Below the pieces are notes generated by a model. The model was not told where the DNA came from, made no database searches, and saw nothing but the letters and a program-made list of their open reading frames with translations. The position numbers were made by a program, and so were the translations under genes. From positions 1 to 53,636 of the forward strand of contig CACYQQ010000002.1 of assembly GCA_902776605.1 (NCBI GenBank): DNA of 53,636 bases, given 5' to 3'. This stretch comes from an uncultured Bacteroidales bacterium (GTDB taxonomy: Bacteria > Bacteroidota > Bacteroidia > Bacteroidales > UBA3663). Within the stretch, counting starts at the first letter, position 1, and each line of letters starts with the position of its first letter. Shown one piece after another: positions 1,644 through 52,995 of this stretch.

Positions 1644-1695
1644 TGTTGTTGTTTTATTTATTGTTAATTTATTAATAATTTGCGTATTCAAGCGG

Positions 1696-1703
1696 CAAAG
1701 ATA
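1696..1703 (-). promoter_or_regulatory. Bacteroidota -7 promoter box TATCTTTG (followed by CCGC) upstream of secDF
   Basis: The reverse complement of caaagata at 1696-1703 is TATCTTTG, matching the TAnnTTTG consensus, 53 nt upstream of the secDF ATG. Confidence 0.5.
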
Positions 1704-1799
1704 GCAAAAAATTCAATAAACTCGACAAAAAAGAGTGAAAAAAGTAAATTTCAATATAAAAATAGGAGAATATTATTAAAATTTGTGTATCTTCGCGCC

Positions 1800-3707: not shown

Positions 3708-3741
3708 GGACTCTCCCCGACCCTCCCTAAGAGGGAGGGAG
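3708..3741 (+). repeat. H element copy 1: GGACTCTCCCCGACCCTCCCTAAGAGGGAGGGAG hairpin module
   Basis: CCCTCCC/GGGAGGG 7-bp stem with a 5-nt loop. It starts 6 nt after the TGA stop at 3699-3701. Near-identical copies lie at 34653, 40127 and 42608. Confidence 0.85.
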
Positions 3742-3793
3742 ATATAATATTTTGTTGGAGCGTGTCCAAATTTCCCATTCCTCCCATTAGTCT

Positions 3794-3849
3794 GTTAACC
3801 CCTAACCGTTAACCCTTAACCGTTAACCCATAACCGCTAACCCTTAAAC
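3794..3849. repeat. Tandem heptad stutter TAACCNN (about 7 units)
   Basis: gttaacccctaaccgttaacccttaaccgttaacccataaccgctaaccctt. The same word family occurs at 4761-4813 and, inverted, at 13017-13047. Confidence 0.85.
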
Positions 3850-4679: not shown

Positions 4680-4701
4680 AAAACCCCTCACCCCATATTT
4701 T

Positions 4702-4813
4702 CCATAGTCACTATAGTTCCTATATTTCCTATAGTATCTATAGTTTCTATAGTCACTATCACCGTTAACCCCTAACCGTTAACCCTTAAACGTTAACCCC
4801 TAACCGTTAACCA
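4702..4813. repeat. Composite stutter array: CTATAGTNN nonamers (4702-4760) followed by TAACCNN heptads (4761-4813)
   Basis: ccatagtcactatagttcctatatttcctatagtatctatagtttctatagtcactatc, then accgttaacccctaaccgttaacccttaaacgttaacccctaaccgttaacc. It fills most of the spacer between the DUF3108 gene and yigZ. Confidence 0.85.
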
Positions 4814-5539: not shown

Positions 5540-6721
5540 ATGAAAAATTTTATCCTATCCTTCTTCCTCCTTGCCAGCAGCGCAGTCTGCATGGCACAAA
5601 TCAATTTGCGTGAGGGCATCGTCATTACCCTACAAGGAGACACTTTGCATGGCTCTATTGACTACCGCACCGACCAATTGAACGCGGAGCAATGCTTGTT
5701 CTTCCCCGACAGGAAAAATGAGTCAGTCACTTACAAACCTGGAGACATTGCAGGCTACCGTTTCTTGGACAATGGCCGCTATTATGTCAGCAGAGTGGTC
5801 GAAATCGAAGAAAACAAACAAAAGAACGTCTTCCTGGAATATGTGGTACGCGGAAATCTCAGCCTCTACTATTTGGATCACCCCGCCATAGTAGATAAAC
5901 TATACTTCTTGGAGGACGAAACTGGCAAAATGGTTAAGTTTAGATACTTAGGGATGGATCAAAAGCATTCCCTCCGTAACAAAAATTTGACCGATGCCTT
6001 TATGATGACCCGAAAGAGCGAGAAGGCTCAACAGATATTGTGGAGAAAAGAACCGAACAGAATTAACACCACAAAGGCCGTACTCACCTACAACAAAGAG
6101 GTGTGTCCCGATGGACAATGTGAAGTCATGGAGTACAAGAAGAAGAGGAAACCCTCCGAGGACAACATGTTCAAATTCGGCTTCAAGGCTGGTTATGCTA
6201 CTTACAACATGAAAGTAGGACGCGATTATGTTGTTGACAAATATAACGCTGGGGCACATTTTGCCGACTTTAAATTGCCTTACCTTTCAGTGGGTTGCGT
6301 CTATTACATCTCCCGACTTGCCAAAAACTTCTTTGGTGAGGCATTCCTCGCCTACTACCATTTTTCAGGCACGTACATTTACGATGATGGGTACACAAAA
6401 CCAAATACTATCTTCAAATATAAAGAAACCGACTTGACAGGCAAAATCGGCTTCGGCTATCATTGGAAGAACATCAACTATGTTCAACCACGTGTACGAG
6501 GAGGCGCTGCACTCTCATTTTTATGGGGTGATTGTGTCAAAGAAAATATGTCATTTTGTGATAATATAAAATGTACGCTTCATCCTGGCTATTATGCAGG
6601 AGCAGGAGTCTTGTTCCCTATCGGGAAGCATGCCATCACGCTGGACGTAGATTATAATTTATCCGACTATTACAAATCAAACATCAAACGAACCATTTTC
6701 GCCATTGGCTATCAATTCTAA
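5540..6721 (+). CDS. Putative outer-membrane protein, tandem paralog 1 (conserved N-domain, beta-barrel-like C-terminus ending IGYQF)
   Basis: Signal peptide MKNFILSFFLLASSAVCMAQ, 393 aa, C-terminal aromatic residue. It is a paralog of the next gene. Confidence 0.7.
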   Translation: MKNFILSFFLLASSAVCMAQINLREGIVITLQGDTLHGSIDYRTDQLNAEQCLFFPDRKNESVTYKPGDIAGYRFLDNGRYYVSRVVEIEENKQKNVFLEYVVRGNLSLYYLDHPAIVDKLYFLEDETGKMVKFRYLGMDQKHSLRNKNLTDAFMMTRKSEKAQQILWRKEPNRINTTKAVLTYNKEVCPDGQCEVMEYKKKRKPSEDNMFKFGFKAGYATYNMKVGRDYVVDKYNAGAHFADFKLPYLSVGCVYYISRLAKNFFGEAFLAYYHFSGTYIYDDGYTKPNTIFKYKETDLTGKIGFGYHWKNINYVQPRVRGGAALSFLWGDCVKENMSFCDNIKCTLHPGYYAGAGVLFPIGKHAITLDVDYNLSDYYKSNIKRTIFAIGYQF

Positions 6722-6724
6722 CGT

Positions 6725-7906
6725 ATGAAAAACTTATTTCTTACCCTTATCCTCCTTGCCAGCAGCGCCGTCTGCATGGCACAAATCAATTTGCGTGAGG
6801 GCATCGTCATTACCTTGTCGGGCGACACGTTACACGGTTCTATCGATTACCGCACCGACCAAATGAACGCGGAGCAATGTCTGTTCGTCCCCGATGGGAA
6901 AAGTGAGTCAGTCACTTACAAACCGGGAGAAATTGCAGGCTATCGCTTCTTGGACAATGGTCGACTTTATGTCACCAAGAAAATTAAGGACGATAAAAAC
7001 AATCTGCGCACCTTCTTCTTGGAATATGTAGTACGTGGACAATTGAGCCTCTACAGATTAAGTAGTTCAATCAAAGAAGATACCTACTTGCTCGAAGATG
7101 AAAATGGGCAGTTGGTACAATTCTCGGAAGAAGAGCAACAAATCGATGAACAATTGCATCGAACAAACCTCAAACCTGTTCTTGCCATGACAAGCAAGAG
7201 CCAGAGCACACAAAAAATGTTGTGGAAGCAAGCCGTGAACCGCAAAACGGTCACGAAAGCGGTAGTAAACTACAATAATGAAGTGTGCCCAGATGGTATC
7301 TGCGAGATATTGGAATATAAGAATAAGAAAACTCCTAATTCAGAAAAGTTGTTTCGCCCTACCGTCAAAATTGGAATGGTCAATTCCAACTTGATATCAT
7401 GTGCCTATTCTGATTTATCAAGGAACTATACGATGCAATATTCCGTCGGAGTGGACTACTATGCAGTTCGTCTTTCAAAAGGTCTCTTTGCCTCTTTCGA
7501 CCTCTCTTATTATCAAGCATCGCAAACAGAAAAGAAATATGAATATTATGATCCTCGTTATATAAAGACATTATATGCAAAAGAAGCATACCTGACGGTC
7601 GGCGCCGGATATCAATGGAAACGCTTCCGTTTCCAACCACGCCTGTACGGTGGATATGCTTTCTCCACATGTTGGGTAAAAGAAAAATGCGATTCTAAAG
7701 ACTATGGAACGACAATTGCCGTTCTCCTAAGAGGTTACCACTTCGGAGCTGGAGTTGTGTGCCCAATCAAAAAAGGAGCTATACTAATAGATTGTAAAAG
7801 CAGTGCTACCAGTTTGGGTGATCCATTATGGATGAGTCAAGATGAAGACATAAAGGGTAGTGTTGGTCGTCTGTCTCTCTCCATCGGTTATCAGTTCGGC
7901 TATTGA
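6725..7906 (+). CDS. Putative outer-membrane protein, tandem paralog 2
   Basis: Starts 3 nt after paralog 1 and is also 393 aa. The first ~80 residues are nearly identical to paralog 1 and the rest is divergent. It ends IGYQFGY. Confidence 0.7.
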   Translation: MKNLFLTLILLASSAVCMAQINLREGIVITLSGDTLHGSIDYRTDQMNAEQCLFVPDGKSESVTYKPGEIAGYRFLDNGRLYVTKKIKDDKNNLRTFFLEYVVRGQLSLYRLSSSIKEDTYLLEDENGQLVQFSEEEQQIDEQLHRTNLKPVLAMTSKSQSTQKMLWKQAVNRKTVTKAVVNYNNEVCPDGICEILEYKNKKTPNSEKLFRPTVKIGMVNSNLISCAYSDLSRNYTMQYSVGVDYYAVRLSKGLFASFDLSYYQASQTEKKYEYYDPRYIKTLYAKEAYLTVGAGYQWKRFRFQPRLYGGYAFSTCWVKEKCDSKDYGTTIAVLLRGYHFGAGVVCPIKKGAILIDCKSSATSLGDPLWMSQDEDIKGSVGRLSLSIGYQFGY

Positions 7907-8021: not shown

Positions 8022-8086
8022 CACCGGCAAATGGAGGGAAGTCTCTTGGGCAACTTTTTCTTCTCCATTTGCCGGTGGTCGTTATG

Positions 8087-8157
8087 ACGTCCTAACGCAG
8101 TTACGTTCTTTTTCCGTTCTTTTTGCTTTCTTTTTCGGTTCTTTTTCGTTCTTTCGG
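8087..8157 (-). repeat. Phased A-tract module, copy 1 (inverted relative to the copies at 36058 and 52232)
   Basis: The reverse complement reads CCGAAAGAACGAAAAAGAACCGAAAAAGAAAGCAAAAAGAACGGAAAAAGAACGTAACTGCGTTAGGACGT. Confidence 0.85.
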
Positions 8158-9981: not shown

Positions 9982-9988
9982 ATTTTGA

Positions 9989-10097
9989 AAATTACTAATT
10001 ACGAATTACAAATTACTTTTCCTCATCGCTAAGAGGAAATAATCTGTAATCCCCTTCCCCAAAAGGAAGGTAATTAGTAATTTGTAATTAGTAATTT
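9989..10097. repeat. Long inverted repeat built from AATTACN heptads, filling the exbB-exbD spacer
   Basis: The left arm (9989-10016, aaattactaattacgaattacaaattac) pairs with the right arm (10070-10097) at 26 of 28 positions. The centre holds two small hairpins, TTTCCTC..GAGGAAA and CCTTCC..GGAAGG. The 24-mer at 10067-10090 recurs exactly at 53613-53636. Confidence 0.85.
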
Positions 10098-10107
10098 GCG
10101 AAGCATT

Positions 10108-10526: not shown

Positions 10527-10660
10527 TAAGGTTATAAGGTTGTAAGGTCGCTTCGCTGGTGAGGTTATAAGGTCGTTATGCTGACGAAGTTTCCTTGTCG
10601 AGGTTATAGGGTCAATAAAGGAACCTTAAAACCTAAAAACCTCATAACCTAAAAACCTCA
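10527..10660. repeat. Inverted arrays of AAGGTTAT / ATAACCT octamer words filling the exbD-tonB spacer
   Basis: aaggttataaggttgtaaggtcgcttcgctggtgaggttataaggtc ... then ggaaccttaaaacctaaaaacctcataacctaaaaacctca. The core ACCTCACCAGCGAAGCGACCTTAYAACCTT recurs, inverted, at 34802-34832. Confidence 0.8.
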
Positions 10661-11551
10661 ATGACAATTATGGAACAAGATAAGAAAAGCCAAATATGGG
10701 GCATTGTTGTCACCCTGCTCTTCCACGTCCTGTTGGTCGTGCTGCTTTGGTTGGCACATTTCAGTCCCTTTGCCCACGAGGAGGAGAGTGGTATCCTGGT
10801 CATGACCGGCATTGATGCCGAGGGCAGCGGCGAGGAACTGATGTCGTCCGACGTGACCGACCTGGAGCCGGAACCGCAGCCCGAAGAGGTACCTCCGACG
10901 CCACCGGCACCGCAACCTACTCCAGCGCCACAACCCACTACCGAACCGCTGTTGGCTCAGGACGATGCTGAGGCACCTTATGTGGCTGAACAGAAAGCCG
11001 AGGAACTCAAGAAGCAGAAAGAGGAGGAGGCTCGTCTGTTGGCCGAAGCCGAGGCACGTCGGCAAGAGGAACTGCGCCGCCAACAGGAAGAGGAGGCTCG
11101 CCGCCGTGCCGCCGAAGAGGCTGCTCGCAAGAAAGCGGCCGAGGAGGCGGCCAAGCGTCAGGCTATCAACAACCAGATGGCGGGTCTCTTCAACAACAAA
11201 GGCACGGGCAACAACGCTGGCACGCAAGGCGATGCACATGGCAACAGCATGACGGGTGCCACCTCGGGCAGTGCCGGTTACGGTGAGTTCGACCTGGGTG
11301 GTCGTGGCATGGTCGGTGCTTTGCCCCGTCCTGCTTTCAACCTCAACGTGAGCGGTAAGGTCGTGGTTCTCATCACAGTCGATGCTGCCGGCAACGTCAA
11401 GTCCACCGCCATCGGCAAGGGCACTACCATCTCCTCGCAGGAGATCCGAAATGCTGCCAAGGAGGCTGCTATGAAGGCCAAATTCAAGTCCGTCAGCGGC
11501 ACCAGCATTACCGCCGGCACCATCACATATTACTTTGACAGCAACAACTAA
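10661..11551 (+). CDS. tonB: TonB-family energy transducer
   Basis: N-terminal TM, P/E-rich then E/A/R/K-rich linker, and a C-terminal TonB-like domain (VVVLITVDAAGNV...AKFK). Confidence 0.8.
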   Translation: MTIMEQDKKSQIWGIVVTLLFHVLLVVLLWLAHFSPFAHEEESGILVMTGIDAEGSGEELMSSDVTDLEPEPQPEEVPPTPPAPQPTPAPQPTTEPLLAQDDAEAPYVAEQKAEELKKQKEEEARLLAEAEARRQEELRRQQEEEARRRAAEEAARKKAAEEAAKRQAINNQMAGLFNNKGTGNNAGTQGDAHGNSMTGATSGSAGYGEFDLGGRGMVGALPRPAFNLNVSGKVVVLITVDAAGNVKSTAIGKGTTISSQEIRNAAKEAAMKAKFKSVSGTSITAGTITYYFDSNN

Positions 11552-11585: not shown

Positions 11586-11740
11586 AAATTGAAAGTTGAA
11601 AATTGAAAAACCTCGGAGTATTCCGAGTACTCCGAGTATTCAGATTACTCCGATTACTCCGATGGCTCCCGAGCTCTTTAGTGCCGAAGGCCATTAGCGT
11701 GAACGAAGTGAACTTTTAGCGGCTCGAAGAGCCCATTAGC
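11586..11740 (+). repeat. Mosaic intergenic element (~150 bp), copy 1
   Basis: Modules in order: AAATTGAAAGTTGAAAA, a CTCCGAGTAYT stutter, GATTACTCCGATGGCTCC, then CTCTTTAG(C/T)GCC..GGC(C/T)ATTAGCG..CTTTTAGCGGCTCG.AGAGCC.ATTAG. The same order is found at 19286-19419. Confidence 0.85.
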
Positions 11741-19285: not shown

Positions 19286-19419
19286 AAATTGAAAGTTGAA
19301 AAACTTCCGAGTACTCCGAGTATTCCGATAACTCTGATTACTCCGATGGCTCCCGCGCTCTTTAGCGCCAAAGGCTATTAGCGCGCGAAGCACTTTTAGC
19401 GGCTCGCAGAGCCTATTAG
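19286..19419 (+). repeat. Mosaic intergenic element, copy 2 (in the susC upstream region)
   Basis: Same module order as 11586-11740. Confidence 0.85.
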
Positions 19420-23780: not shown

Positions 23781-23797
23781 GAATTAAACAGGAAAAA

Positions 23798-23825
23798 CTC
23801 AAGAATTAGAGAATTGGAGAAAGAA
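23798..23825 (+). repeat. CTCAAGAATTAGAGAATTGGAGAA module (GAATTAGA stutter)
   Basis: The same module heads each unit of the 52338-52995 tandem array and occurs inverted at 33133-33161. Confidence 0.8.
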
Positions 23826-30042: not shown

Positions 30043-30135
30043 TTACGGTGCTGCCCTTACAGGGCGAACCCTCTCTTGCTCCACGGGACCCCAGGCGCTG
30101 CCTGGGGCTGACCGGTATTGCGCTTTCAGCGCGTC
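30043..30135 (+). repeat. REP-like element A (three hairpins)
   Basis: GCCCTTACAGGGC, CCCCAGGCGCTGCCTGGGG and GCGCTTTCAGCGC. It is homologous to elements B and C. Confidence 0.85.
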
Positions 30136-30340
30136 ATCAAACAGAGAACACTGTATCTTCAAAACCGCGCAGACAATAGCAAAGGATGTTTCGTTCGGTC
30201 CGATAGGATAGCTTCGAACTATACCAGCATCAATTATTCCTTAATGCTTGTGTTTTCGCTCTGATTAATAGAATAGTTCTTGAACCAACCTCGAAAGTTT
30301 TACTTGAACATTTCCTTATGATAATTATGTCTTGCATAGA

Positions 30341-30434
30341 GGAACGCCACGAAGTGGCAATACCGATCAGCCCAGGGCAACGCCCTGGGTTTACGTGGGC
30401 AAGAAAGGAATGCGCCCTGTAAGGGCAACACCGT
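30341..30434 (-). repeat. REP-like element B (inverted), abutting the RAYT 3' end
   Basis: The reverse complement carries GCCCTTACAGGGC, CCCAGGGCGTTGCCCTGGG and GCCACTTCGTGGC. Confidence 0.85.
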
Positions 30435-30440
30435 CAATAA

Positions 30441-30896
30441 TCAATCTGTCCATAGATATTTCTCGTCATATTCAATGTTATACAATTGAAGGAACTGGAT
30501 ATACTCATCCCGAAAGGATTGCTTCTTATGGTGTTCCGCTTGGTTCTGCAAGTAACGAATCACCGTATTGACTTGTGATTGCCCAATGGAAAATGCCCCA
30601 TATCCACCTTGCCACGCAAAGTCTTCATAATAAGGCGACAAGGTCTTTATCCAACGACTACTATTCCGCTTCATCTCTTCCACCACATGAGCCGTATTTT
30701 CTGTCTTGGACAAGGTAATGAGCACATGAACATGGTCTTCCGTCCCTCCCACCTGCAAAACTTGGCAACCTGCAATATTCACCATCTTTCCGATGTAACG
30801 GTGCAAGGAATCAATATCTTCAGGTCTGATTATACGGCACGACGTTTTTAGGTGAAATACGATGTGCAAGTATATTTTTGTAAGCGATTGTGACAT
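30441..30896 (-). mobile_element. REP-associated tyrosine transposase (RAYT) / IS200-like Y1 transposase
   Basis: 151 aa: MSQSLTKIYLHIVFHLK, HUH motif DHVHVLITL, WQGGYGAFS, catalytic-Tyr region VIRYLQNQAEHH. It is flanked by inverted REP elements B and C. Confidence 0.85.
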
Positions 30897-30917
30897 TTAA
30901 TCATTTTATTTATAGGT

Positions 30918-31011
30918 TCTTACGGTGCTGCCCTTACAGGGCGAATGTCCTCTATCTACTTGAGACCCAGGGCGTTGCCCTGGGCTATTCGATGTTGCGC
31001 TTTCAGCGCGT
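30918..31011 (+). repeat. REP-like element C, abutting the RAYT 5' end
   Basis: Hairpins at 30930-30942, 30966-30984 and 30997-31009. Confidence 0.85.
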
Positions 31012-32692: not shown

Positions 32693-33132
32693 AAGCGGGC
32701 TCAATAGTTAATACACTTACTAAATGCAGCCGTTGGCGAAATACTGCATGGCAAAGAACGAAAACGATAACCAAAACGAAAAAGAAACTTCGTCAACGAA
32801 AACGAAACTTCGTACGAAAACCAAAACGATAACGAAAACAAAAAAACTCCCTTGCACTCTTTTCAACTCCGTGAGAGGTTATAATACTCCGTCAATTAAA
32901 CTTAATTTGAACTCAATTCCGTGTGTCGCGAGAGCCATGCAACTCAATTGGTAACTCAATTGAACTCAATTTGAAAGATGCGAAAACTAAAAACCTTCGC
33001 GAAAACGAAAAAACTTCCGCGTCAACTATAACTAACTTTGTACGAAAACGAAAACTAAAACGAAAAACCTTCGCGTCAACTATAACAACCGAATTCTCTA
33101 ATTCTCATTCATTCATCTTATCGTCTCCCCAA

Positions 33133-33161
33133 GAAAATTCTCTAATTCTCTAATTCTTGAG
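33133..33161 (-). repeat. Inverted copy of the CTCAAGAATTAGAGAATTAGAGAATTTTC module
   Basis: gaaaattctctaattctctaattcttgag is the exact reverse complement of the start of the 221-bp repeat unit. It is followed by a 3 x ~16-bp stutter, TCTTGAGTT(T)AATCTTT, that runs into the comM stop. Confidence 0.8.
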
Positions 33162-33196
33162 TTTAATCTTTTCTTGAGTTAATCTTTTCTTGAGTT

Positions 33197-34649
33197 TTAT
33201 CCTTGACCCCACGAGTGCTTGTCCAGGTTGCGGTACGAGATGGCCTCGGCAATGTGGGTTGAGGAGATTGACTCACACCCCTCATAGTCGGCAATGGTAC
33301 GTGCCACGCGCAAGATGCGGTCGTAGGCACGGGCCGAGGGCATTGAGTTGAGCCGCCGCCGACAGTTGAGCAAAACGCTCCTCCTGAATGCGTCGTGCCT
33401 TGAGTACACGTTCACGAATTGAGGCCGACGACTCCGAGACATGATGACGAGACATCTCCTCGAACGACAGCGGACGAATCTCAATCTGCATGTCGATGCG
33501 GTCGAGCAACGGACCCGAAATACGTCCCAAGTACTTACGCACCTGCGATTCGGTGCAGGTACACTCGTGCGTAGGGTGGTTGTAGTAGCCGCATGGGCAA
33601 GGGTTCATCGATGCCACCAACATCACGCTGGAGGGGTACGTCACCGTGTTCTTGGCACGGGCGATGGTGATGACACGGTCCTCGAGGGGTTGGCGCAACA
33701 CCTCCAACACCTCACGTCGGAACTCTGGCAGTTCATCCAGATAGAGCACTCCGTTGTGCGCCAACGAGACCTCACCCGGCAGCGGGTTCGTGCCGCCGCC
33801 AATCAGTGCCACGCTCGATATAGTGTGGTGCGGCGAACGGAAAGGACGTTGCGTGATGAGACCCGTCTCGGCACGCAGACCCGCCACGCTGTGTATCTTG
33901 GTGGTTTCCAACGCCTCGCCCAACGAGAGCGGCGGCAGGATACTGGGCAGGCACTTTGCCATCATACTCTTGCCCGCACCCGGAGGACCCACCATGATGA
34001 GGTTATGACCACCCGCAGCGGCGATGGCGAAAGCACGTTTCTCGACCTCCTGCCCCTTGACGTCGGCAAAGTCGGCAGCATAGGTGCGCTCCGCCTTGGC
34101 AAACATCTCGCGCGTGTTGACCTCCAACCGTTCCAACTCTCCGCGTCCACTCAGGAACTCGACGATCTGATGCAGGTCGTCGGCAATGAGCACCTCCAAC
34201 TGGTTGACCACCGCCGCCTCACGGGCATTCTCGCGCGGCACGACGATACCCTTCAACCCCATCTTACGGGCCAAGATGGCAAACGGCAGACAACCGCTCA
34301 CGGGTTTGACCTTGCCGTCCAACGACAGTTCGCCCACCAGCATGTAGTCGCCCAACTTGGCAGCAGGAATCAACTCGCCCGCCGCCAGCACCGCCACGGC
34401 AATAGGCACGTCGTACATCGACCCCTCCTTGCGCACGTCTGCAGGCGCCAGGTTGATAGTGATCTGTTTGCGCGGCACACGCATCCCGACCTCACGGAGC
34501 GCACTCTCCATGCGGTCTCGACTCTCCTTGACTGCCGCATCGGGCAACCCGATGATGATGATTCGACAACCCGGCGAGATAGCCGTTTCGCAATAAACTG
34601 GTGTAGCATCAATGCCTTGCAAGGCAGCAGATAAGGTACGGACAACCAT
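33197..34649 (-). pseudogene. comM: comM/yifB (Mg-chelatase-like AAA+ competence protein) with an internal deletion plus frameshift near the 3' end
   Basis: Frame A (33282..34649) matches ComM up to ...[17 protein letters not shown]. Frame B (33197..33484) resumes at [28 protein letters not shown]...ISYRNLD. The total is 1453 nt (not a multiple of 3), or ~484 codons against ~510 for the family as I recall it. Confidence 0.75.
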
Positions 34650-34652
34650 ATA

Positions 34653-34686
34653 GGACTCTCCCCGACCCTCCCTAATAGGGAGGGAG
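34653..34686 (+). repeat. H element copy 2
   Basis: GGACTCTCCCCGACCCTCCCTAATAGGGAGGGAG, preceded by TAG. It lies 3 nt outside the comM start codon, and no + strand gene ends here. Confidence 0.85.
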
Positions 34687-34762
34687 AATTAATAATTTGC
34701 TTTAGTTATTGATAAAGGAATGACAAGAACAAACCGATAATATAATGTAAGGTAGAAGCAAT

Positions 34763-36057: not shown

Positions 36058-36153
36058 CTTTGAAAAGAACGAAAAAGAACCAAAAAAGAACGGAAAAAGA
36101 AAGCAAAAAGAAAGCAAAAAGAAAGCAAAAAGAAAGCAACTCCGTGACGACGT
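36058..36153 (+). repeat. Phased A-tract module, copy 2 (longest)
   Basis: CTTCTTTGAAAAGAACGAAAAAGAACCAAAAAAGAACGGAAAAAGAAAGCAAAAAGAAAGCAAAAAGAAAGCAAAAAGAAAGCAACTCCGTGACGACGT, with A5-6 tracts every ~11 bp. Confidence 0.85.
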
Positions 36154-36163
36154 AAGACGGTGG

Positions 36164-37063
36164 TCAATGGATAATTGACGATGGACACAGCGGGACAAGT
36201 TGCAAGGAGAACACCACATGCCAGCCGTTCAGGGGTTGGTCACAGAGGTCGAGCATGCCGCCCTGCTGTATCATCATGCGGCGACTGAGCGAGAGGCCAA
36301 TGCCGTGACCGGTGCGCTTGGTGGTGAAGAAGGGGACGAAAAGCGAGGCGCGGTCCTCGGCAGGGATGGGGCGACCGTCGTTGCCCACATAGAGTGTCAA
36401 GGTGGGACTCGGCAGGGGGTGAGCCGATGGCGCCACCCAACAGGCGATGGTGTGCGACTCGGCCTCCAACGCGTTCTTTATCAGGTTCATCAGCACCTGG
36501 CGCAGCATACCGGCATCGGCGCAGACGGTGGCATCGGCAGGCACCTGTACTTGCCACGCGAGGTCAGGATAAGCGCGACGGAGGTCGTCGAGGATGGAGA
36601 GGAGCGACACTTGGGCCAGGGTGGGTTTCTCCAGTTCCGACATCTTGCGGTAGTTCACTACGAAGTCACTGAGGTGACGGGAGGTGGTGCAGATGGCACG
36701 GATACCGTCTTCCAGAGGCGTGCCCTGCACGTCGGGACGGGGCAAGAGGGACTGGCTGATGCTCGAGATAGGGGCGGTGGCGTTCATCACCTCGTGGGTC
36801 AGGACACGGGTGAGCCGTTCCCACGACTCGACCTCCTTCTGCACCACCTGTTGGTGGATGGTCTCGCCCAACTGATTGAGGGTCTGCTGCATGGCGCGTT
36901 CGCCGAAGAACAATCCTCGGGTCGAAAGGTGAAAAGTGAAGTCGCGGTTGCGGATAGCCTCCTGCATGAGGTAGGCTCTCTCCTTCAGCCGGTACTGGTG
37001 GCGCACAAAGAGGAGGATGCCCAACACACAGACCACGGCAAGTGCAATGATGATCCAGGTCAT
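36164..37063 (-). CDS. Sensor histidine kinase (one N-terminal TM, HisKA, HATPase_c)
   Basis: H-box LTHEVMNATAPI, N-box LMNLIKNALEA, G-boxes GHGIGLSLSRRM. Its start overlaps the response-regulator stop in ATGA. Confidence 0.8.
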   Translation of the reverse strand: MTWIIIALAVVCVLGILLFVRHQYRLKERAYLMQEAIRNRDFTFHLSTRGLFFGERAMQQTLNQLGETIHQQVVQKEVESWERLTRVLTHEVMNATAPISSISQSLLPRPDVQGTPLEDGIRAICTTSRHLSDFVVNYRKMSELEKPTLAQVSLLSILDDLRRAYPDLAWQVQVPADATVCADAGMLRQVLMNLIKNALEAESHTIACWVAPSAHPLPSPTLTLYVGNDGRPIPAEDRASLFVPFFTTKRTGHGIGLSLSRRMMIQQGGMLDLCDQPLNGWHVVFSLQLVPLCPSSIIH

Positions 37064-37727: not shown

Positions 37728-38908
37728 ATGAAAAGGATAACAACTATACTTCTGCTCACCACCGCGCTGAGCGCCCACGGCCAGTCGGCACTGACCCTGC
37801 AACAGTGCATGCAGTATGCCGTCGAGCACAACCACGAGGTGAAGCGCGTCGCCCTGGAGTTGGACAACTACGAAGCCAACCTCACGGAGGCGGCGGTCAG
37901 TTTCCTGCCGTCGGTCAACGCTTCGGTGTCGGGGCAATACAACTTCGGACGAACCATCGACCAGAAGACCAACGTCTATAACGATGTCAATACCTTCAAT
38001 AACAGCACCTCGCTCAACGCCTCGATGCCCCTCTTCGACGGATTCAACCGTTGGCACGCCCTCCGCGCTGCCAAGGCGGGCACCCTGATGGGACGGTTGG
38101 CATTGCGCCTACTACAAAAGTGGGACGAAAGAGCCCTACGGAACTGGCATTGGTCGAAGCGCAACTGGCCGAAGCGGACTACGAACTGACGCGGCAACAG
38201 AACCTCCACGCCTCGGCGCTGTTGGAACTCAAGAAGACGATGGCCTACCCGATGGAAGACAGTATCGCCCTGGCCGTCAATGTCTTGCCATCGGCCGAAG
38301 AGGCCTCTCTGAGCAGCCTGCCCGACATTGCTCAACATGCCAGCGTGCAGAGGGCCTATTACCAGATGCAGGCGAGCCGGCAACAATGGAAACAGTCGCG
38401 CGCCGGTCTCTACCCCACCATCAGTCTGAATGCCGGTCTGAACACGGGTTACTTCAAGACGCTGCACGTCGATGTTGATCCGACGTTCCATGCGCAATAC
38501 AAGAACAACCTGGGTAAGTACATCGGCGCCACGTTGAGCATCCCTTTGTTCAACAACTTACAGCAGGTGAGCCAAGTACGCCGCGCCCGGAACAACATGC
38601 AGATGGCGCAGGAACAATACGAACAGCAGCAACTGGAGTTGGAGAAACTGAGCCGCGAAGCCTGGCAGGACTGGCAGGGATATCGGCAACAGACCCTCCA
38701 GATGCAGAAAAAGAGTGAGGCGGACAGTCTGGCCTACAGCCTGACTCGCCGGCAGTTTGAAGAGGGTCTCTGCACCGCCATCGACCTGCACACCGTGCGT
38801 TCGCAATGGCTCAACTCGAAGGCGATGCTCCTGCAATGCCGACTCATGGTGATGGTGAAGCAACAATTAGTCAGATATTATAACGGTGAAACGATATGGA
38901 TAGAATAA
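37728..38908 (+). pseudogene. tolC: TolC-family outer-membrane efflux protein, frame-broken with an apparent internal deletion
   Basis: Frame 0 reads MKRITTILLLTTALSAHGQSALTLQQCMQYAVEHN ... LRAAKAGTLMG. The sequence then continues only in another frame: KVGRKSPTELALVEAQLAEADYELTRQQN ... to 38908. The span is 1181 nt (not a multiple of 3), or ~393 codons against ~440 typical. Confidence 0.75.
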
Positions 38909-40126
38909 TCGAAAAGAAAAAAGGTCTCTTCCAGAAGAAGAACCTCCCCTATATACTCATCGGCGCTGCCGCGTTGGCACTGACCAGCTGGCTGGTGTTC
39001 GGCAACCACGCTGCGACCTTCCGTGTGGATGGTGACGACTTGACTATCAGCGAAGTGAAGGGCGGTCTGTTCAAGGACTTCGTCCGCACCAGTGGTCAGG
39101 TCATGCCTATCCAAGTGGTACATATCGCTCCCGAGGAAGGCGGCATCGTCCAGGAAAAAGTGGTCGAGGAGGGCTCCATGGTCAAGCGCGGCGACGTCAT
39201 TGTCCGACTGAGCAACTCCAGTCTTGACCTCCAGATCCTGAATGCCGAAGCGGAGTTGGCCGAGAAGCAGAACCTACTGCGCAACACCTTGGTTACCATG
39301 CAGCAAGACCGTCTGAACAACCAAACGGAACTGGCGCAGTTGGACATCGACTCGCAACGGAAGAAACGCACCTACGAGCAGAACAAACGCCTCGTGGCAG
39401 AACATCTCATCAGTCAGGAGCAGTTCCTGCAATCGGAAGAGGACTACCAACTGGCTGCCCGCAAGCACTCGTTGGTCACGCAACGCCTCATTCAGGACAG
39501 CCTCTACCGCTCCACACAGTTGGCGCAAATGGAAGACAACCTGGCGAACATGCGCAAGAATGTTCTCCTGGTCCGCAAGCGCAAGCATCGACGGCGAACT
39601 GGGTCTGCTGGATGTCGAGATTGGTCAAAGCATCACCCCTGGCTGGAAGATTGGCCAACTGAACGACCTGTCGGACTATAAGGTCGAGGCCTCGATCGAT
39701 GAACATTACATCGACCGCGTCCGACCCGGACTGAAAGCTACCTTCGTGCGCAACGACCACAGCTACGAACTTCAGGTGCGCAAGGTCTATCCCGAGGTGC
39801 GTAATGGCAAGTTCCGCTGCGACTTCACCTTCTGTGACCTCCGCCCCGAGAACATCCGAACGGGTCAGACCTACTACATCGACCTCGAACTGGGTCAACC
39901 CGAACAGGCGGTCATGATACCGCGCGGCACCTTCTTCCAGACCACCGGCGGACAATGGATATTCGTCCTCGACAAGAGTGGCCAGAAAGCCTACCGTCGC
40001 GAAATCCGCATCGGCCGCCAGAACCAACACCACTACGAGGTCCTCTCGGGACTGGAACCCGGCGAACGTGTCGTCACCAGCGGCTACGAAGCCTTCAAGC
40101 AAGTGGAGGTGCTGGAGATAAAATAA
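38896..40126 (+). pseudogene. HlyD/MacA-type periplasmic adaptor subunit, frame-broken
   Basis: ORF 38896..39681 carries the TM, the lipoyl-like domain and the coiled coil up to NMRKNVLLVRKR. ORF 39560..40126 resumes at ASIDGELGLLDVEIGQSI in another frame. The span is 1231 nt (not a multiple of 3). The junction is at the CGCAAGCGCAAGC repeat, 39574-39586. Confidence 0.75.
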
Positions 40127-40160
40127 GGACTCTCCCCGACCCTCCCTATGAGGGAGGGAG
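40127..40160 (+). repeat. H element copy 3, starting at the first base after the adaptor TAA stop
   Basis: TAA|GGACTCTCCCCGACCCTCCCTATGAGGGAGGGAG. Confidence 0.85.
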
Positions 40161-40165
40161 GAAAA

Positions 40166-40243
40166 ATATAGTATCTATAATCTCTAGAATAACTAGAAGT
40201 TCTAGAAATCCTAGAGTATCTAGAATATCTAGTTCCTCTAGAC
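40166..40243. repeat. (T)CTAGAANN nonamer stutter
   Basis: atatagtatctataatctctagaataactagaagttctagaaatcctagagtatctagaatatctagttcctctaga. Confidence 0.8.
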
Positions 40244-40273
40244 CCCCCTAACAACTAAAACATAAATCACCCT

Positions 40274-42607
40274 ATGAACATCCTCAAAAACATCCTTTAC
40301 ATGGCAAAGCGGTTCAAGACCGCTACTGCCTTGAACCTTATCGGACTGATAGTAGGTTTCTCCGCCTGCTACCTGTTCTTGACGCAAGTGGTGTACAACC
40401 ACTCGTACAACACCTGCCTGAAGGATCACGACCGCCTCTACCGAGTGGAGGTAAATGGTTTCTTCACTTCAGGCGAATGGTTGGCCTATTCTCCTCGTTA
40501 TCTGGCCGACTGCCTGGAGAAGTTGCCTCAGGTGGAGAGCGCCTCGTTCATCATGCCTTGGGGTGGCAGCTGGGTCATGCGCAAGGGCGAGACCGAGATG
40601 GACTTCGAGGTCTTGGAAGCCACCAATAAGGGCATCTCTACCATGATTCCAGGTCTCCTGGACGGCACCTTGGAGTGGAGCGAAGAGGACAAGGAGGGTC
40701 TCCTCATCCCGGCCTCCATTGCCAAAACCTACTTCGGCGAAGTACAGGTTGCAGGTCGTTACATGAACCGCGGTCAGGACAGTCTGTTGGTGCGCGGTGT
40801 CTATCAAGACCTGCCCGAGAACTGTGTCATCAGCAATGTCATCTACCGCAACATTCTCGACAACCAGAAGGACCAACCCCATAACTTCAATGGCAACAGC
40901 TATGTCCGACTGAAACAAGGCGTTGATACCGTCGGCCTTGCCAACACTTTCCGGACTTACATCAACCACTCCCCGTTGCTTGAGCAGAGTGGAGACTCAT
41001 TGGAGTACCTCCGCCTGAATCCCGTCAAAGAGACGTGGTTCTCCAAGGCCGACTCCTTCAAGGACAAAGGCAATCAGGGCGTCGATTGGGTCTTGCAGTT
41101 GTCCTGCCTCCTGGTCCTGCTTATTGCCACCATCAACTTCCTGAACTTCACCTTGGCCGAGAGCCCCATGCGCATCAAGAGCATCAACACGCGCAAAGTG
41201 TTGGGCAGCAGCACCCTGTCGCTCCGACTCTCATTGGTGGGAGAGACCGTCCTGATTTCCGTCGTATCGTTCATCGCTTCGTTGGGCATCCTCTATCTGC
41301 TCTCCCAATGGCCCGAAATGCGGCAGTTGGTCAAAGGCAGCATCGCCCTCAGCGACCACCCCGTCCTGGTGACCGTCCTGGCACTGACCTCCATCGTCGT
41401 AGGCATCGTGGCTGGCACCTATCCTGCCCTCTATGTCACCTCCTTCCAACCTGCCCTGGTGCTGAAAGGTTCGTTCGGACTCACCCCCAAGGGTCGCCAA
41501 CTCCGCACCGGCCTGCTCTGTCTCCAGTTTGTCATCACCTCCATCATGGCGGTCTATCTCGGCATCCTGGAATTGCAAAGCGACTATATCTACAACTCGA
41601 AGTGCGGCTACGACAGGGAAGTTCTGATGAACTGTTGGAACAACGACCTCTACGAGAAACGTGATGCTCTCCGTAACGAACTCTTGCAACTGACGGGCAT
41701 CGAGGATGTCAGCTACTCCCAGTTCCCGATTGGAGTCAATGACCAATATATGTTCTGGTCGCGTGGAGACAAAGATCATGTCATTTCCTTCACGGTCTTC
41801 ATTGTCGATAATCACTATCTCAACACCTTAGGCATCAAGTTGACCGAGGGTCGCAACTTCAACGAGAACGAAGACAACACCTACATCATCAACGAGGCAG
41901 CCCGCCAGCAATGGGACTGGGTCGAGTTGGACAAACCACTGCTGGAAGGCCAACCCAAAGTCATCGGTGTCTGCGAAAACCCGCGTTTTGCCACCACCCG
42001 CATTGACAACAACTCCTCGCCCTTGGTCTTTGTCGTCTCCGATCCGAACTACCCTTGGTTCGTAGAACTTCGTAATGTTAATATCCGCGTGGCAGCGGGC
42101 ATCGACAAGATCCGTTTGCGCAAACAGATTCAAGAGGTCTTCATGCGAATGGGCGCACGTCACGAACCTGATGTCAAGTTCCAGGACCAGCAACTCGAAG
42201 AGGCCTACCAGGAGGAGTTCCTATTCATTCGTCAAGTCATCATCTTCTCTATCATCTGTCTGATTATCACCTTGATTGGCGTCTTCTGCCTGACGATGTT
42301 CGAGACCGAGTACCGCCGCAAGGAGATTGGCATCCGCAAAGTGATGGGCAGTTCGACCACCGAAATCCTGACCCTGCTCTGCCGCCGCTATGTCTGGTTG
42401 CTCCTGGGCAGTTTCGCCGTCGCTGCTCCCGTGGCGTGGCACTTGGGCAACGTCTGGCTCCAGAGTTTCGCCGAGCACACTCCCATCTACTGGTGGCTCT
42501 TCCCACTTGCTCTCTTCGTCGTCAGCTTGGTTACTCTCGCCACCATTATCATCCAGAGCTGGAGAGTGGCCAACGCGAACCCCGTGGAGAGTGTGAAGAG
42601 TGAGTAA
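40274..42607 (+). CDS. FtsX/MacB-type ABC transporter permease (777 aa, two FtsX modules)
   Basis: N-terminal TM plus a large periplasmic domain plus 3 TM, duplicated. The C-terminus ends ...ANANPVESVKSE, which is typical of the family. Confidence 0.8.
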   Translation: MNILKNILYMAKRFKTATALNLIGLIVGFSACYLFLTQVVYNHSYNTCLKDHDRLYRVEVNGFFTSGEWLAYSPRYLADCLEKLPQVESASFIMPWGGSWVMRKGETEMDFEVLEATNKGISTMIPGLLDGTLEWSEEDKEGLLIPASIAKTYFGEVQVAGRYMNRGQDSLLVRGVYQDLPENCVISNVIYRNILDNQKDQPHNFNGNSYVRLKQGVDTVGLANTFRTYINHSPLLEQSGDSLEYLRLNPVKETWFSKADSFKDKGNQGVDWVLQLSCLLVLLIATINFLNFTLAESPMRIKSINTRKVLGSSTLSLRLSLVGETVLISVVSFIASLGILYLLSQWPEMRQLVKGSIALSDHPVLVTVLALTSIVVGIVAGTYPALYVTSFQPALVLKGSFGLTPKGRQLRTGLLCLQFVITSIMAVYLGILELQSDYIYNSKCGYDREVLMNCWNNDLYEKRDALRNELLQLTGIEDVSYSQFPIGVNDQYMFWSRGDKDHVISFTVFIVDNHYLNTLGIKLTEGRNFNENEDNTYIINEAARQQWDWVELDKPLLEGQPKVIGVCENPRFATTRIDNNSSPLVFVVSDPNYPWFVELRNVNIRVAAGIDKIRLRKQIQEVFMRMGARHEPDVKFQDQQLEEAYQEEFLFIRQVIIFSIICLIITLIGVFCLTMFETEYRRKEIGIRKVMGSSTTEILTLLCRRYVWLLLGSFAVAAPVAWHLGNVWLQSFAEHTPIYWWLFPLALFVVSLVTLATIIIQSWRVANANPVESVKSE

Positions 42608-42641
42608 GGGACTCTCCCCGACCCTCCCTAATAGGGAGGGG
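42608..42641 (+). repeat. H element copy 4, starting at the first base after the permease TAA stop
   Basis: TAA|GGGACTCTCCCCGACCCTCCCTAATAGGGAGGGGG. Confidence 0.85.
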
Positions 42642-42651
42642 GTATTAAAAA

Positions 42652-42802
42652 TACTTAAAGCTATCACAACTTTCTATAATACTATAATTAAATAGTCTCT
42701 ATAGTCACTATCTCCCCTTAAAACTTAAAGCTATCACAACTTTCTATAATACTATAATTAATATAGTCTCTATAGTTTCTATAGTCACTATCTCCCCTTA
42801 AA
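42652..42802 (+). repeat. Tandem duplication (71 bp plus 80 bp) containing the CTATAGTNN stutter, followed by AACCT words up to 42832
   Basis: ACTTAAAGCTATCACAACTTTCTATAATACTATAATTAA(T)ATAGTCTCTATAGT..CACTATCTCCCCTTAAA occurs twice. The second unit has one extra CTATAGTTT word. Confidence 0.85.
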
Positions 42803-42840
42803 ACCTCATAACCTAACAACCTCAAAACCTATTTACAGCT

Positions 42841-43509
42841 ATGATAAAAATCTCTAATCTAACAAAAGTGTTCCGTACCGAAGAAGTTGAAACCACTGCC
42901 CTGGGCGGCGTGTCGCTCGAAGTGAAAGAGGGCGAGTTTGTCGCCATCATGGGTCCCTCGGGTTGTGGCAAGTCCACCTTGCTCAACATCCTGGGTCTAC
43001 TCGACAACCCCACCAGCGGCCAATATTGGTTGGACGGACAGGAAGTCGGCTGCCTCAAAGAGAGCCAACGCACCCAAGTGCGCAAAGGTCAGATTGGCTT
43101 CATCTTCCAGAGCTTCAACCTCCTGGACGAACTCAACGTCGAAGAGAACGTCGAACTGCCGCTCACCTATCTGGGCATCCCCAAGAAGGAGCGTAAGGAG
43201 CGCGTCGAAGAGGTGTTGCGCCGCATGGCCATCAGTCACCGCGCTCACCACTTCCCCCAGCAACTCTCGGGCGGTCAGCAACAGCGCGTCGCCATTGCCC
43301 GCGCCGTAGTCACTCACCCCAAACTCATCCTGGCCGACGAGCCAACGGGTAACCTCGACTCCAAGATTGGTCTGGAGGTGATGCAGCTCCTCACCGAACT
43401 CAACCAGACCCTCGGCACCACCATCGTCATGGTCACTCACTCGCAGCGCGATGCCGGTTTTGCCCAACGCACCATCCACCTCCTGGACGGCCAAGTGGTA
43501 ACAGAATAA
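42841..43509 (+). CDS. ABC transporter ATP-binding protein (MacB/LolD-like)
   Basis: Walker A GPSGCGKST, signature LSGGQQQRVAIARA, Walker B LILADEPTGNLD. Confidence 0.9.
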   Translation: MIKISNLTKVFRTEEVETTALGGVSLEVKEGEFVAIMGPSGCGKSTLLNILGLLDNPTSGQYWLDGQEVGCLKESQRTQVRKGQIGFIFQSFNLLDELNVEENVELPLTYLGIPKKERKERVEEVLRRMAISHRAHHFPQQLSGGQQQRVAIARAVVTHPKLILADEPTGNLDSKIGLEVMQLLTELNQTLGTTIVMVTHSQRDAGFAQRTIHLLDGQVVTE

Positions 43510-47080: not shown

Positions 47081-47181
47081 AATACTCGGAGATATTCGGA
47101 GTTTTCCAATTATCGAATTATTCGGATTACTCCGAGTATTCAGAATTCTCTGAGTATTCAGACAACTCCAATACTCTCCGA
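47081..47181. repeat. TACTCGGAG / TACTCCGAGTATTCAGA word stutter (same vocabulary as the mosaic element)
   Basis: aatactcggagatattcggag...attcggattactccgagtattcagaattctctgagtattcagacaactccaatactctccg. Confidence 0.75.
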
Positions 47182-47241
47182 CTGCTGGGTCATTCTACAT
47201 TCCTCTTTACCCTTTACTCTCTACTCTTTTTTAACCTCCCC

Positions 47242-52231: not shown

Positions 52232-52307
52232 CTCTTTGAAAAGAACGAAAAAGAACCAAAAAAGAAAGCAAAAAGAACGGAAAAAGAACGCAACTCCGTT
52301 ACGACGT
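52232..52307 (+). repeat. Phased A-tract module, copy 3
   Basis: CTCTTTGAAAAGAACGAAAAAGAACCAAAAAAGAAAGCAAAAAGAACGGAAAAAGAACGCAACTCCGTTACGACGT. Confidence 0.85.
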
Positions 52308-52337
52308 CGGTATCGGCAGGTCGCGACGGGAGTCATT

Positions 52338-52995
52338 CTCAAGAATTAGAGAATTAGAGAATTTTCTTTTGCGCACAAAGTAATGTCGATATCTGTATCG
52401 AATTAGTGAGAATTAGAGAATTCGATGGCTCTAGAGGTCGCATTGGGCTTTTTTAAACGCACTTTTTCCTTCGTTCTCAAATTCGTTTCATAGTCCTTTC
52501 ATGCGGTCGGGTGCGTGCAAGGCTATTCGTCTGCATTGGTTCTATTCGGTGATTCAATCTCAAGAATTAGAGAATTAGAGAATTTTCTTTTGCGCTTAAT
52601 GGAGAATGTAGATATCTGGATTGAATTGATGAGAATTAGAGAATTCGATAGCTCTGGAGGTCGTATTGGGCTTTTTAAAACGCACTTTTTCCTTCGTTCT
52701 CAAATTCGTTTAATATTCCTTTCAGGCAGTCGTGCGGGTTCAAGGTTATTCGTCTGCATTGGTTCAATTCGGTGATTCAATCTCAAGAATTAGAGAATTA
52801 GAGAATTTTTTTGCGCGCAATGGAGTGTGATATCAGTATTGAATGGGTGAGAATTAGAGAATTCGATGGCTCTGGAGGTTGCATTGAGCCTTTTAAAACG
52901 CACTTTTTCCTTCGTTCTCGAATTCGTTTAATAGTCTTTTCATGCGGTCGGGTGCGTGCAAGGCTATTCGTCTTCATTGGTTCCATTCGGTGATT
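52338..52995 (+). repeat. Three tandem copies of a ~221-bp non-coding unit (52338, 52559, 52782)
   Basis: Each unit starts CTCAAGAATTAGAGAATTAGAGAATTTT, contains GAGAATTAGAGAATTCGATGGCTCTGGAGGT and AAACGCACTTTTTCCTTCGTTCTC, and ends ATTCGGTGATT. The unit lengths are 221, 223 and ~214 bp, which are not multiples of 3. Confidence 0.9.

Follow-up and report, generated by a model that had tools for sequence, protein, structure and literature searches.

Why should a short G+C-rich hairpin begin exactly where an open reading frame ends, and do so several times within a single contig? The question is raised by the element found at 40127-40160 of the window, the whole stretch of 53,636 nucleotides from an uncultured Bacteroidales bacterium that was analysed here, and by three further copies, which a preliminary description of this DNA had reported as near-identical and similarly oriented. 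The window was searched with the pattern GGACTCTCCCCGACCCTCCCTAWKAGGGAGGGAG, up to three mismatches being tolerated. Four matches were obtained, all on the + strand: 3708-3741 (copy 1), 34653-34686 (copy 2), 40127-40160 (copy 3) and 42609-42642 (copy 4), whereas none of 100 dinucleotide-preserving shuffles contained a match by chance. The four near-identical, same-orientation copies are thus real, and the starts given earlier for the first three are correct, while the start at 42608 proposed for the fourth included one extra G. The density of the element, hereafter called H, is 4 copies per 53.6 kb.

The 34-mer has the layout GGACTCTCCCCGA-CCCTCCCT-NNN-AGGGAGGG-RG, that is, a C-rich head of 13 nt (GGACTCTCCCCGA), an 8-bp stem (CCCTCCCT/AGGGAGGG) closed by a variable 3-nt loop, and a final RG. 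The loop bases are AAG, AAT, ATG and AAT in copies 1 to 4, and the terminal dinucleotide, AG or GG, is followed by an A/T-rich tail of 12-17 nt. In copy 1, the head spans 3708-3720, the two strands of the stem 3721-3728 and 3732-3739, the loop AAG 3729-3731 and the A/T-rich tail ATATAATATTTTGTTGG 3742-3758, with TTTG at 10-13 nt past the 34-mer. The tails of the other copies, also A/T-rich and on the + strand, are AATTAATAATTTG (34687-34699) for copy 2, GAAAAATATAGTA (40161-40173) for copy 3, where TCTAGAA-type tandem repeats follow at 40172-40232, and TATTAAAAATACT (42643-42655) for copy 4, which ends in GG instead of AG and whose tail is near the commoner tail type AnTTAAAAATACAAA. The head and the 5' strand of the stem are near-duplicates of one 10-mer (GACTCTCCCC / GACCCTCCCT). 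As the preliminary description had proposed, the core makes a hairpin, which was present in every fold predicted for the surrounding 71 nt. With its 34 nt, 8-bp stem and 3-nt loop, H has the size and the palindromic build of a REP. All four window copies are solo and extragenic, with no inverted partner. Only one frame of the 34-mer contains a stop codon, a property that matters only where ORFs run into H.

The gene neighbours of the four copies were identified from Pfam scans and from gene calls on an identical public contig (cattle-rumen assembly, ENA ERZ28612973, scaffold_644). The gene of a Big_5-domain protein of 673 aa (1680-3701) ends with a TGA (3699-3701), and copy 1 begins 6 nt further on, in agreement with the distance first reported. 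Copies 3 and 4 are located between the cistrons of an adaptor-FtsX-ABC efflux cluster, as had also been noticed. Copy 3 lies in the adaptor/FtsX spacer and starts at the base adjoining the TAA (40124-40126) with which the efflux adaptor gene (38873-40126, 417 aa) ends; the FtsX/MacB permease gene (40274-42607, 777 aa) begins 113 nt after it. Copy 4 lies in the FtsX/ABC spacer and was also said to follow a TAA directly, which holds for copy 3 only, as a gap of 1 nt separates copy 4 from the permease TAA (42605-42607); 198 nt then separate it from the ABC ATPase gene, which begins at 42841. Copy 2 is antisense to, and immediately upstream of, a ComM/Mg-chelatase-like gene on the minus strand (33282-34649, 455 aa), whose ATG (34649-34647) is 3 nt from the head of the element. 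This start call is credible, since the N-terminal ChlI domain begins at residue 22. Copy 2 had been credited with a TAG of its own, but this triplet consists of TA plus the first G of the element and adjoins the start codon of the divergent gene. The related idea that H carries or targets a stop triplet can be kept in part: at four sites (L072, L073, L077 and L085) the TAG stop of the upstream ORF is indeed formed by TA and the first G of H, while copy 2 has no stop of its own. A further suggestion was that the hairpin sequesters a GGAGG-like string. Nothing in the surroundings of the copies gives such a string a function, the nearest start codons downstream lying 113-198 nt away, and we rejected Shine-Dalgarno sequestration because no start codon lies within 100 nt downstream of the window copies. 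Shine-Dalgarno pairing is, moreover, little used in Bacteroidetes.

H loci were then collected by exact-match scans, so that the conservation of the 34-mer across loci is partly a matter of ascertainment. One genome per species was scanned and gave 22 loci, in Bacteroidales and Paludibacteraceae MAGs; 12 of these 22 come from the RUI194 MAG, the census being one of MAGs. An exact scan of metagenomes gave 29 further loci. After de-duplication, H is represented by 59 distinct sites from about eight Bacteroidales/Paludibacteraceae MAGs and one metagenome project. When the hairpin only was used as a query (ACCCTCCCTNNNAGGGAGGGRG), at least 119 loci were found, mostly in Prevotellaceae/Bacteroidaceae MAGs from rumen and gut, and among the listed matches the hairpin is preceded by the heads AGACCCACCCCA, GACCCACCCCTC or GGACCCACCCCA, which are related to that of H. 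On the basis of these related heads carried by a shared hairpin, H is, as judged from sequence, one subfamily (head GGACTCTCCCCG) of a much larger Bacteroidales/Prevotellaceae superfamily sharing the CCCTCCCT/AGGGAGGG hairpin. The family displays several architectures: solo elements, inverted doublets resembling REPINs or MITEs, tandem composites and in-frame intragenic copies. In the HGM05423, SUG and LOHA15 MAGs, doublets of ~108 bp are found in which the 34-mer forms the left arm and is followed by a conserved A/T-rich core and by an inverted, slightly different arm. The 34-mer heads a composite unit of 109 nt in RUI194, where this unit is also found in tandem, and many of the Prevotella copies are inverted doublets of 56-169 bp. 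The preliminary description had offered to abandon its proposal if the motif proved confined to the four window sites or devoid of bias. We found 59 sites, with the positional and orientation biases presented below, which clearly departs from both.

Scanning the whole window against Rfam 15 at the gathering score gave no match overlapping any copy. In a permissive Rfam scan of 40050-42900, which contains copies 3 and 4, the best hit was CRISPR-DR15, at chance level (19.8 bits against a threshold of 36, E = 1.2). Literature searches by sequence string returned no paper containing H strings, and searches by topic returned no Prevotella repeat of such kind. A census of MITEs lists Prevotella MITEs (PMC11602168), none of them with a description that can be matched to H. 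That no described family could be recognised in H at first sight is therefore upheld by the Rfam scans, permissive for two of the copies, and by the literature searches. We also looked for H in mobile replicons. A blastn search of phage and plasmid collections gave no match, although the low-complexity filter may have masked a query made of C and G runs, and the hairpin core was matched three times, on two contigs, among 2.9 million viral contigs. A phage or plasmid origin was rejected on these grounds.

Is the hairpin itself under constraint? Since exact matching had been used to collect the loci, nothing can be concluded from the conservation of the bases that were searched for, and we relied on two comparisons that are free of this bias. 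In the first one, partner arms were located by the 9-nt head motif alone. A stem of at least 7 bp was present at the expected place in 36 of 56 arms located in this way, while shuffled controls gave a mean of 2.4 and a maximum of 7. These stems comprised 15 variants, several of them with compensatory double changes (TCCTCCCT/AGGGAGGA, TCTCCCCT/AGGGGAGA and CCCTCTCT/AGAGAGGG). In the second one, orthologous sites were compared. At the adaptor site of L064/L067/L076, both arms are identical to those of copy 3 and all three loop bases are different; the spacer is only 69% identical there, against 94-97% for the flanking coding DNA. The orthologue of copy 1 in L065/L070/L088 is identical at 34 of 34 positions, and the spacer that follows at 84%. 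The hairpin is thus a conserved feature of the family, with stems that covary and loops that drift.

We then examined how H is placed with respect to genes, on the basis of simple ORF calls. The head is found within 10 nt after a codirectional stop at 23 of the 59 sites and within 10 nt of a divergent start at 13, the remaining sites being mostly in multi-repeat arrays or without a callable neighbour. The spacers occupied by H were classified as unidirectional with H in the same sense (17), unidirectional with H antisense (14), convergent (7) and divergent (4). Left gaps are mostly 0-12 nt and right-hand gaps mostly 60-500 nt. In the same-sense unidirectional spacers, which are about 70-540 nt long, the left gap is at most 12 nt in 16 of 17 cases; by our own arithmetic, uniform placement would give a chance of ~3-15% per site. 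These counts confirm that the head is oriented against ORF ends, as had been noticed on the window copies, and the small number of divergent spacers reveals a preference for 3' ends of the kind published for REPs (PMC3733652). The wider superfamily behaves likewise, 36 of 104 sites being within 10 nt of a stop and the distances peaking at 0-3 nt. Most of the sites next to a start codon belong to doublets that occupy an entire intercistronic spacer, the other arm abutting the upstream stop; both ends of such doublets touch genes because the original spacer was tiny. Upstream of H, the base at -1 is A at 42 of 59 sites and C is depleted from -1 to -4, but across the 59 sites no fixed 4-5-mer target emerged 5' of the element beyond this A, contrary to what would be expected of an IS200/IS605-type element or a PATE. 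A bias linked to the replication strand was not supported either, since orientation tracks the adjacent genes and both orientations coexist on one RUI194 contig. The sharp peak at the stop codon is not accounted for by any demonstrated mechanism.

Such strong biases of position and orientation toward ORF 3' ends, together with the covariation of the hairpin and with orthologous stems that are kept while loops and spacers drift, could designate a 3'-end RNA module selected by the host, either an atypical or factor-dependent terminator or a stabilising or processing hairpin, which would be copied by recombination and not by transposition. The paucity of hairpin-plus-T-run terminators between 33 and 45 kb of the window (8, compared to 11.8 in shuffles) would fit such a role. 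However, neither strand has a T-run after the stem: the sequence is rich in A at positions +35 to +45, the tail is A-rich or mixed A/T, and a terminator scan called none of the copies. A canonical Rho-independent terminator was thus rejected for want of a T-run. Related genomes do possess canonical terminators, as seen in L011, L066 and L080, where one lies immediately upstream of H. The 13 sites of 59 at which H is antisense and directly upstream of a start codon also argue against this explanation, as do the two copies located within the efflux cluster, where termination would be counter-productive. With the turnover of sites and the in-frame copies described below, which weigh in the same direction, we regard host selection of an RNA module as unlikely.

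The tails of H suggested another possibility, namely a mobile terminator-promoter "insulator" cassette in which H would end the transcript and a -7-like box, the TTTG of the tail, would restart the next gene, so that operons are split. This TTTG resembles the Bacteroidetes -7 box TAnnTTTG. The tail type of copy 1 (...TAATATTTTGTTGG / TAATTTTG) recurs after H in L065, L085, L077, L006 and L071, at a fixed distance from the 34-mer, and the cistrons of the efflux cluster have indeed been moved apart: in more distant Prevotellaceae the adaptor|FtsX spacer measures 6 nt (HUN156) versus 147 nt in the window, and the FtsX|ABC spacer 21 nt (L052) versus 233 nt. Yet most of these tails, that of copy 1 included, read TAnTTTG, one base short of the box, which is exact in L065 only. 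No TTTG is found at the right distance to form a -33 element, the commoner tail type AnTTAAAAATACAAA is without the box, and the type of tail is independent of the orientation of the downstream gene. A sigma-70 promoter scan was set aside and brings no help to the cassette, the model being uninformative for Bacteroidetes. As the box is mostly one base short and belongs to one tail type only, we kept it as a minor rival, and consider the cassette very unlikely.

Comparison of related genomes showed that H comes and goes. At the FtsX|ABC site of L064, whose flanks are 94-98% identical to those of the window, homology breaks at the FtsX stop codon, and a TGA followed by a different repeat module is found there, with no H. 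Conversely, a DUF3108-stop site that carries H in this same relative shows 12 unrelated bases in the window. Occupancy thus changes at these two sites between relatives that are 93-97% identical, a turnover that is difficult to reconcile with a module maintained by host selection. At the site of copy 1, H is missing from RUI194 (L013), where identity is ~76%. Filled and empty sites look like spacer replacement and not like clean insertion, and recombination between repeat-rich spacers could therefore move H without transposition.

Copies of the superfamily are also found inside genes. Some ORFs enter the element and end at a TGA, TAA or TAG in its loop, which gives them C-termini such as ...THPSPSL. 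Superfamily doublets are moreover present in frame inside long conserved genes, to which they add peptides such as ..PTPSLPxREG... The clearest case is UvrA, where an in-frame doublet lies between the two ABC modules (the identity of the protein was confirmed against PDB 3pih). Further in-frame ORFs, assigned by eye, correspond to a methionine synthase (MetH)-like protein, an RNase R-like protein, an ABC-F protein, TonB-dependent receptors and a histidine kinase. These copies in uvrA and other genes again speak against a 3'-end module selected by the host.

If H is mobile DNA, which enzyme might move it? The window carries a RAYT (30441-30896, Pfam Y1_Tnp), and the preliminary description, which compared H to REP/BIME elements, had already set it apart from the hairpins flanking this gene. 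Comparison of the flanks led to the same view: the RAYT is flanked by a triple-hairpin block of the type GCCCTGAAAGGGC / CCCAGGGC..GCCCTGGG, unlike H. The same block surrounds the RAYT homologues that were inspected (L210, L215 and L220), the last one from RUG837, in which superfamily elements are present as well. A family arm was present within 1.5 kb of only 2 of 80 RAYT homologue loci, and tblastn over 1.6 Mb around ~290 copy-bearing loci detected no RAYT, the search covering this one Y1 clade. The RAYT was therefore rejected as the mobiliser. The termini of H (head GGACTCTCCCCGA, 3' end RG) bear neither a GTAG nor a CGTC tag. Searches around the copies found no mobilising enzyme; the window copies are solo and not doublets. 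In L011 and L066/L069, inverted copies of H enclose a DUF559 endonuclease ORF, but we rejected it as a general partner because it is encountered only at these apparently orthologous sites, plus one homologue (L176) ~3 kb from an arm.

The inverted doublets of about 85-170 bp with a conserved A/T-rich core seen in the HGM05423, SUG and LOHA15 MAGs and across Prevotella also evoke a classical MITE or IS end, in which H would be the terminal inverted repeat of an IS with a DDE transposase and the window copies solo ends left by deletions. No direct repeat longer than 2 nt flanks the 42 doublets examined, the same as in permuted flanks, which speaks against such an origin. Between inverted pairs separated by 0.35-3.2 kb, no transposase ORF was seen, those ORFs that could be assigned by eye being housekeeping genes. 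Each arm is itself a hairpin, as in REPs and REPINs, and not a plain inverted repeat. The near-absence of the family from phage, plasmid and viral sequences, with the same reserve about filter masking in blastn, points in the same direction. To our knowledge, no IS is related to H. A classical MITE or IS end is, in our opinion, highly improbable.

Taken together, these results lead us to favour a reading, to which we attribute a probability of roughly 0.65, in which H is selfish or mobile DNA of the REP type whose hairpin and head are recognised by a mobiliser, which is tolerated mainly at the 3' ends of ORFs and which, being co-transcribed, exerts REP-like effects on RNA. H would act as a small non-autonomous mobile or selfish element that leaves no target-site duplication. 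It may spread through a trans-acting enzyme recognising the hairpin and the head in single-stranded DNA, and the hairpin would persist because hairpin and head are precisely what this mobiliser recognises. H would settle, or survive, with its head at the 3' end of an upstream ORF, or else fill a very short intercistronic spacer. Owing to this location, H would be transcribed within the 3' untranslated or intercistronic region of the upstream gene. The stem begins 13-19 nt after the stop, and the RNA hairpin, of roughly -15 kcal/mol, might form there a barrier to 3'-exonucleases or a processing point, as E. coli REPs do. E. coli REPs within ~15 nt of a stop codon reportedly also lower the expression of the upstream gene through ribosome stalling. 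Since its hairpin is so close to the stop, H may modulate the termination and the expression of the upstream gene. In the efflux cluster, it could help to uncouple adaptor, FtsX and ABC cistrons that are tightly packed in relatives. A bolder version would make of the family a RAYT-independent, REP-like superfamily of Bacteroidales whose spread is directed to ORF 3' ends, at the stop codon or across it, by a new mechanism and a new enzyme, H and its tail forming, in this repeat-rich lineage, a portable module that divides operons into units under separate control. We judge this version quite unlikely, and H alone reveals no new kind of system.

If the favoured reading, that of REP-type mobile DNA, holds, the family would have some practical and conceptual use. 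It would provide a marker for strain typing and flag assembly breaks in MAGs. It is a cause of annotation errors, because ORFs extend into or through the element and proteins gain ..PTPSLPxREG.. inserts. It would allow one to ask whether REP-type elements need a RAYT at all, and would offer a candidate post-transcriptional element, in a phylum where the signals for translation and for mRNA decay are unlike those of E. coli. As far as we know, work on small palindromic repeats has been confined almost wholly to Proteobacteria. We consider the family of moderate interest, chiefly for its wide distribution among rumen and gut Bacteroidales, for the lack of any visible RAYT partner and for the peptides that it adds to proteins.

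How, then, does H compare to known systems? It shares with a Rho-independent terminator a stable G+C-rich hairpin just past the stop codon, but is devoid of U-tract, and some of its copies lie inside a gene cluster, others upstream of start codons in antisense. Like Correia/NEMIS, ERIC and other co-transcribed MITEs, the family includes inverted-repeat forms of ~100 bp that occupy the spacers between cistrons, where transcription would include them and their RNA would fold; in contrast to them, it displays no duplication of TA or of any other target and has a hairpin of its own in each arm. By their in-frame insertion into conserved genes, whose products gain short peptides, the superfamily doublets recall the Rickettsia palindromic elements (RPE) and other REP-decorated proteins, although in-frame insertion is limited to the wider superfamily and the four window copies are extragenic. 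With the REPIN-RAYT system (Bertels and Rainey 2011, PMC3116915), the relatives of H share doublets of two hairpin units with a short spacer, and the family is apparently vertical with local gain and loss; a RAYT is even present in the same window, but it is flanked by unrelated hairpin blocks, and the window copies of H are singlets.

The closest resemblance is found with REP/BIME elements: a unit of 20-40 nt with a conserved head and an imperfect palindrome, dispersed and mostly extragenic, that may be single, paired in inverted dimers or clustered, and that is occasionally found in frame within uvrA and other genes. H differs from them by the lack of a GTAG or CGTC tag, by its C-rich head that nearly duplicates the 5' stem, by its host phylum, Bacteroidota, and by the fact that no cognate tyrosine transposase was found for it. 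GTAG- and CGTC-tagged REPs are mainly located in unidirectional and convergent spacers, within less than 20 bp of the upstream ORF's end, their distance to the downstream ORF being variable; their GTAG termini often supply a TAG stop, and a minority are intragenic, in particular within repair genes such as uvrA (Di Nocera et al. 2013, PMC3733652). Each of these behaviours is reproduced by H and its superfamily. Adjacency to stop codons is therefore a signature of REPs as a kind and no peculiarity of this element (PMC3733652). Because neither the tag nor a cognate RAYT was found, we call H REP-like instead of filing it in the tagged superfamilies, and we conclude that it belongs to an apparently undescribed REP-like family of rumen and gut Bacteroidales.

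Copies of the superfamily, the larger Bacteroidales/Prevotellaceae repeat set that shares the hairpin of the 34-mer H and has related C-rich heads, were also found in frame inside long conserved genes at seven loci (L137, L167, L169, L198, L124, L161 and L096). They occur there mainly as inverted doublets and contribute peptides such as ..DPPQPSLKGRE...PLREGQGGS.. to the host protein. The host gene at L137 was confirmed as UvrA against PDB 3pih, and the other host genes were named by eye (MetH-like, RNase R-like, ABC-F, TonB-dependent receptors and a histidine kinase). In MAG RUI194, the 34-mer leads a conserved 109-nt composite unit, followed by about 75 nt ending in ..attaatgcctaagatta; this unit is arranged in tandem and present at several loci (L013 424-642, L001 4539-4722, L003, L008 and L019).

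In two related genomes, two inverted H copies bracket a small ORF encoding a DUF559-like endonuclease of the Vsr/PD-(D/E)XK type (L011 2433-3175 and L066 10310-11572, L069 being the same site as L066), and one of the bracketing copies directly follows a canonical terminator made of a hairpin and a T-run. This ORF had no wider association with H, a single further homologue (L176) being found among about 290 loci. After the DUF3108 gene, a relative carries an H copy (L065 1371-1440), whereas the window carries aaaacccctcacccc (4680-4700), a C-rich string similar to a superfamily head and devoid of a hairpin, which may be a remnant. A different C-rich hairpin, tcccctcccatcccctcccggCCTCCCCgaGGGGGAGGag, lies at about 3880-3930 of L028 (Prevotella sp. 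P3-122). Because it starts immediately 3' of an ABC ATPase gene that ends in TAG, Prevotella may harbour further hairpin families of this style that abut stop codons.

In the window, short tandem word repeats make up many of the intergenic spacers, with a period of 7-18 nt (3794-3847, 4693-4812, 8086-8154, 9984-10102, 10616-10661, 11595-11687, 19288-19362, 23795-23821, 33131-33164, 36060-36164, 40172-40232, 42672-42841, 47095-47187 and 52236-52318). The words are TTAACCC, CTATAGTNN, TCCGAGTAC, AACCTNAN, AAAAGAANGNA, AGAATTAG, TCTAGAA and GTAATTA; spacers that are otherwise unrelated share them, in either strand orientation, and the corresponding spacers of close relatives contain other combinations of modules. 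The AGAATTAG word is also repeated inside every unit of a tandem array at 52333-52995 (three copies of 223 nt, 87% matches). Two neighbouring 393-aa ORFs (5540-6721 and 6725-7906) are tandem paralogues, 85% identical over their first 253 nt.

The window RAYT, an IS200-like Y1 transposase gene (30441-30896, minus strand), lies within a region (30043-31011) where it is flanked by three-hairpin blocks at 30043-30134, 30343-30437 and 30920-31011. Its homologues at L210, L215 and L220, which come from other Bacteroidales MAGs, are flanked in the same way, and one of the window blocks matches the Rfam family Acido-Lenti-1 at gathering score (30966-31010).
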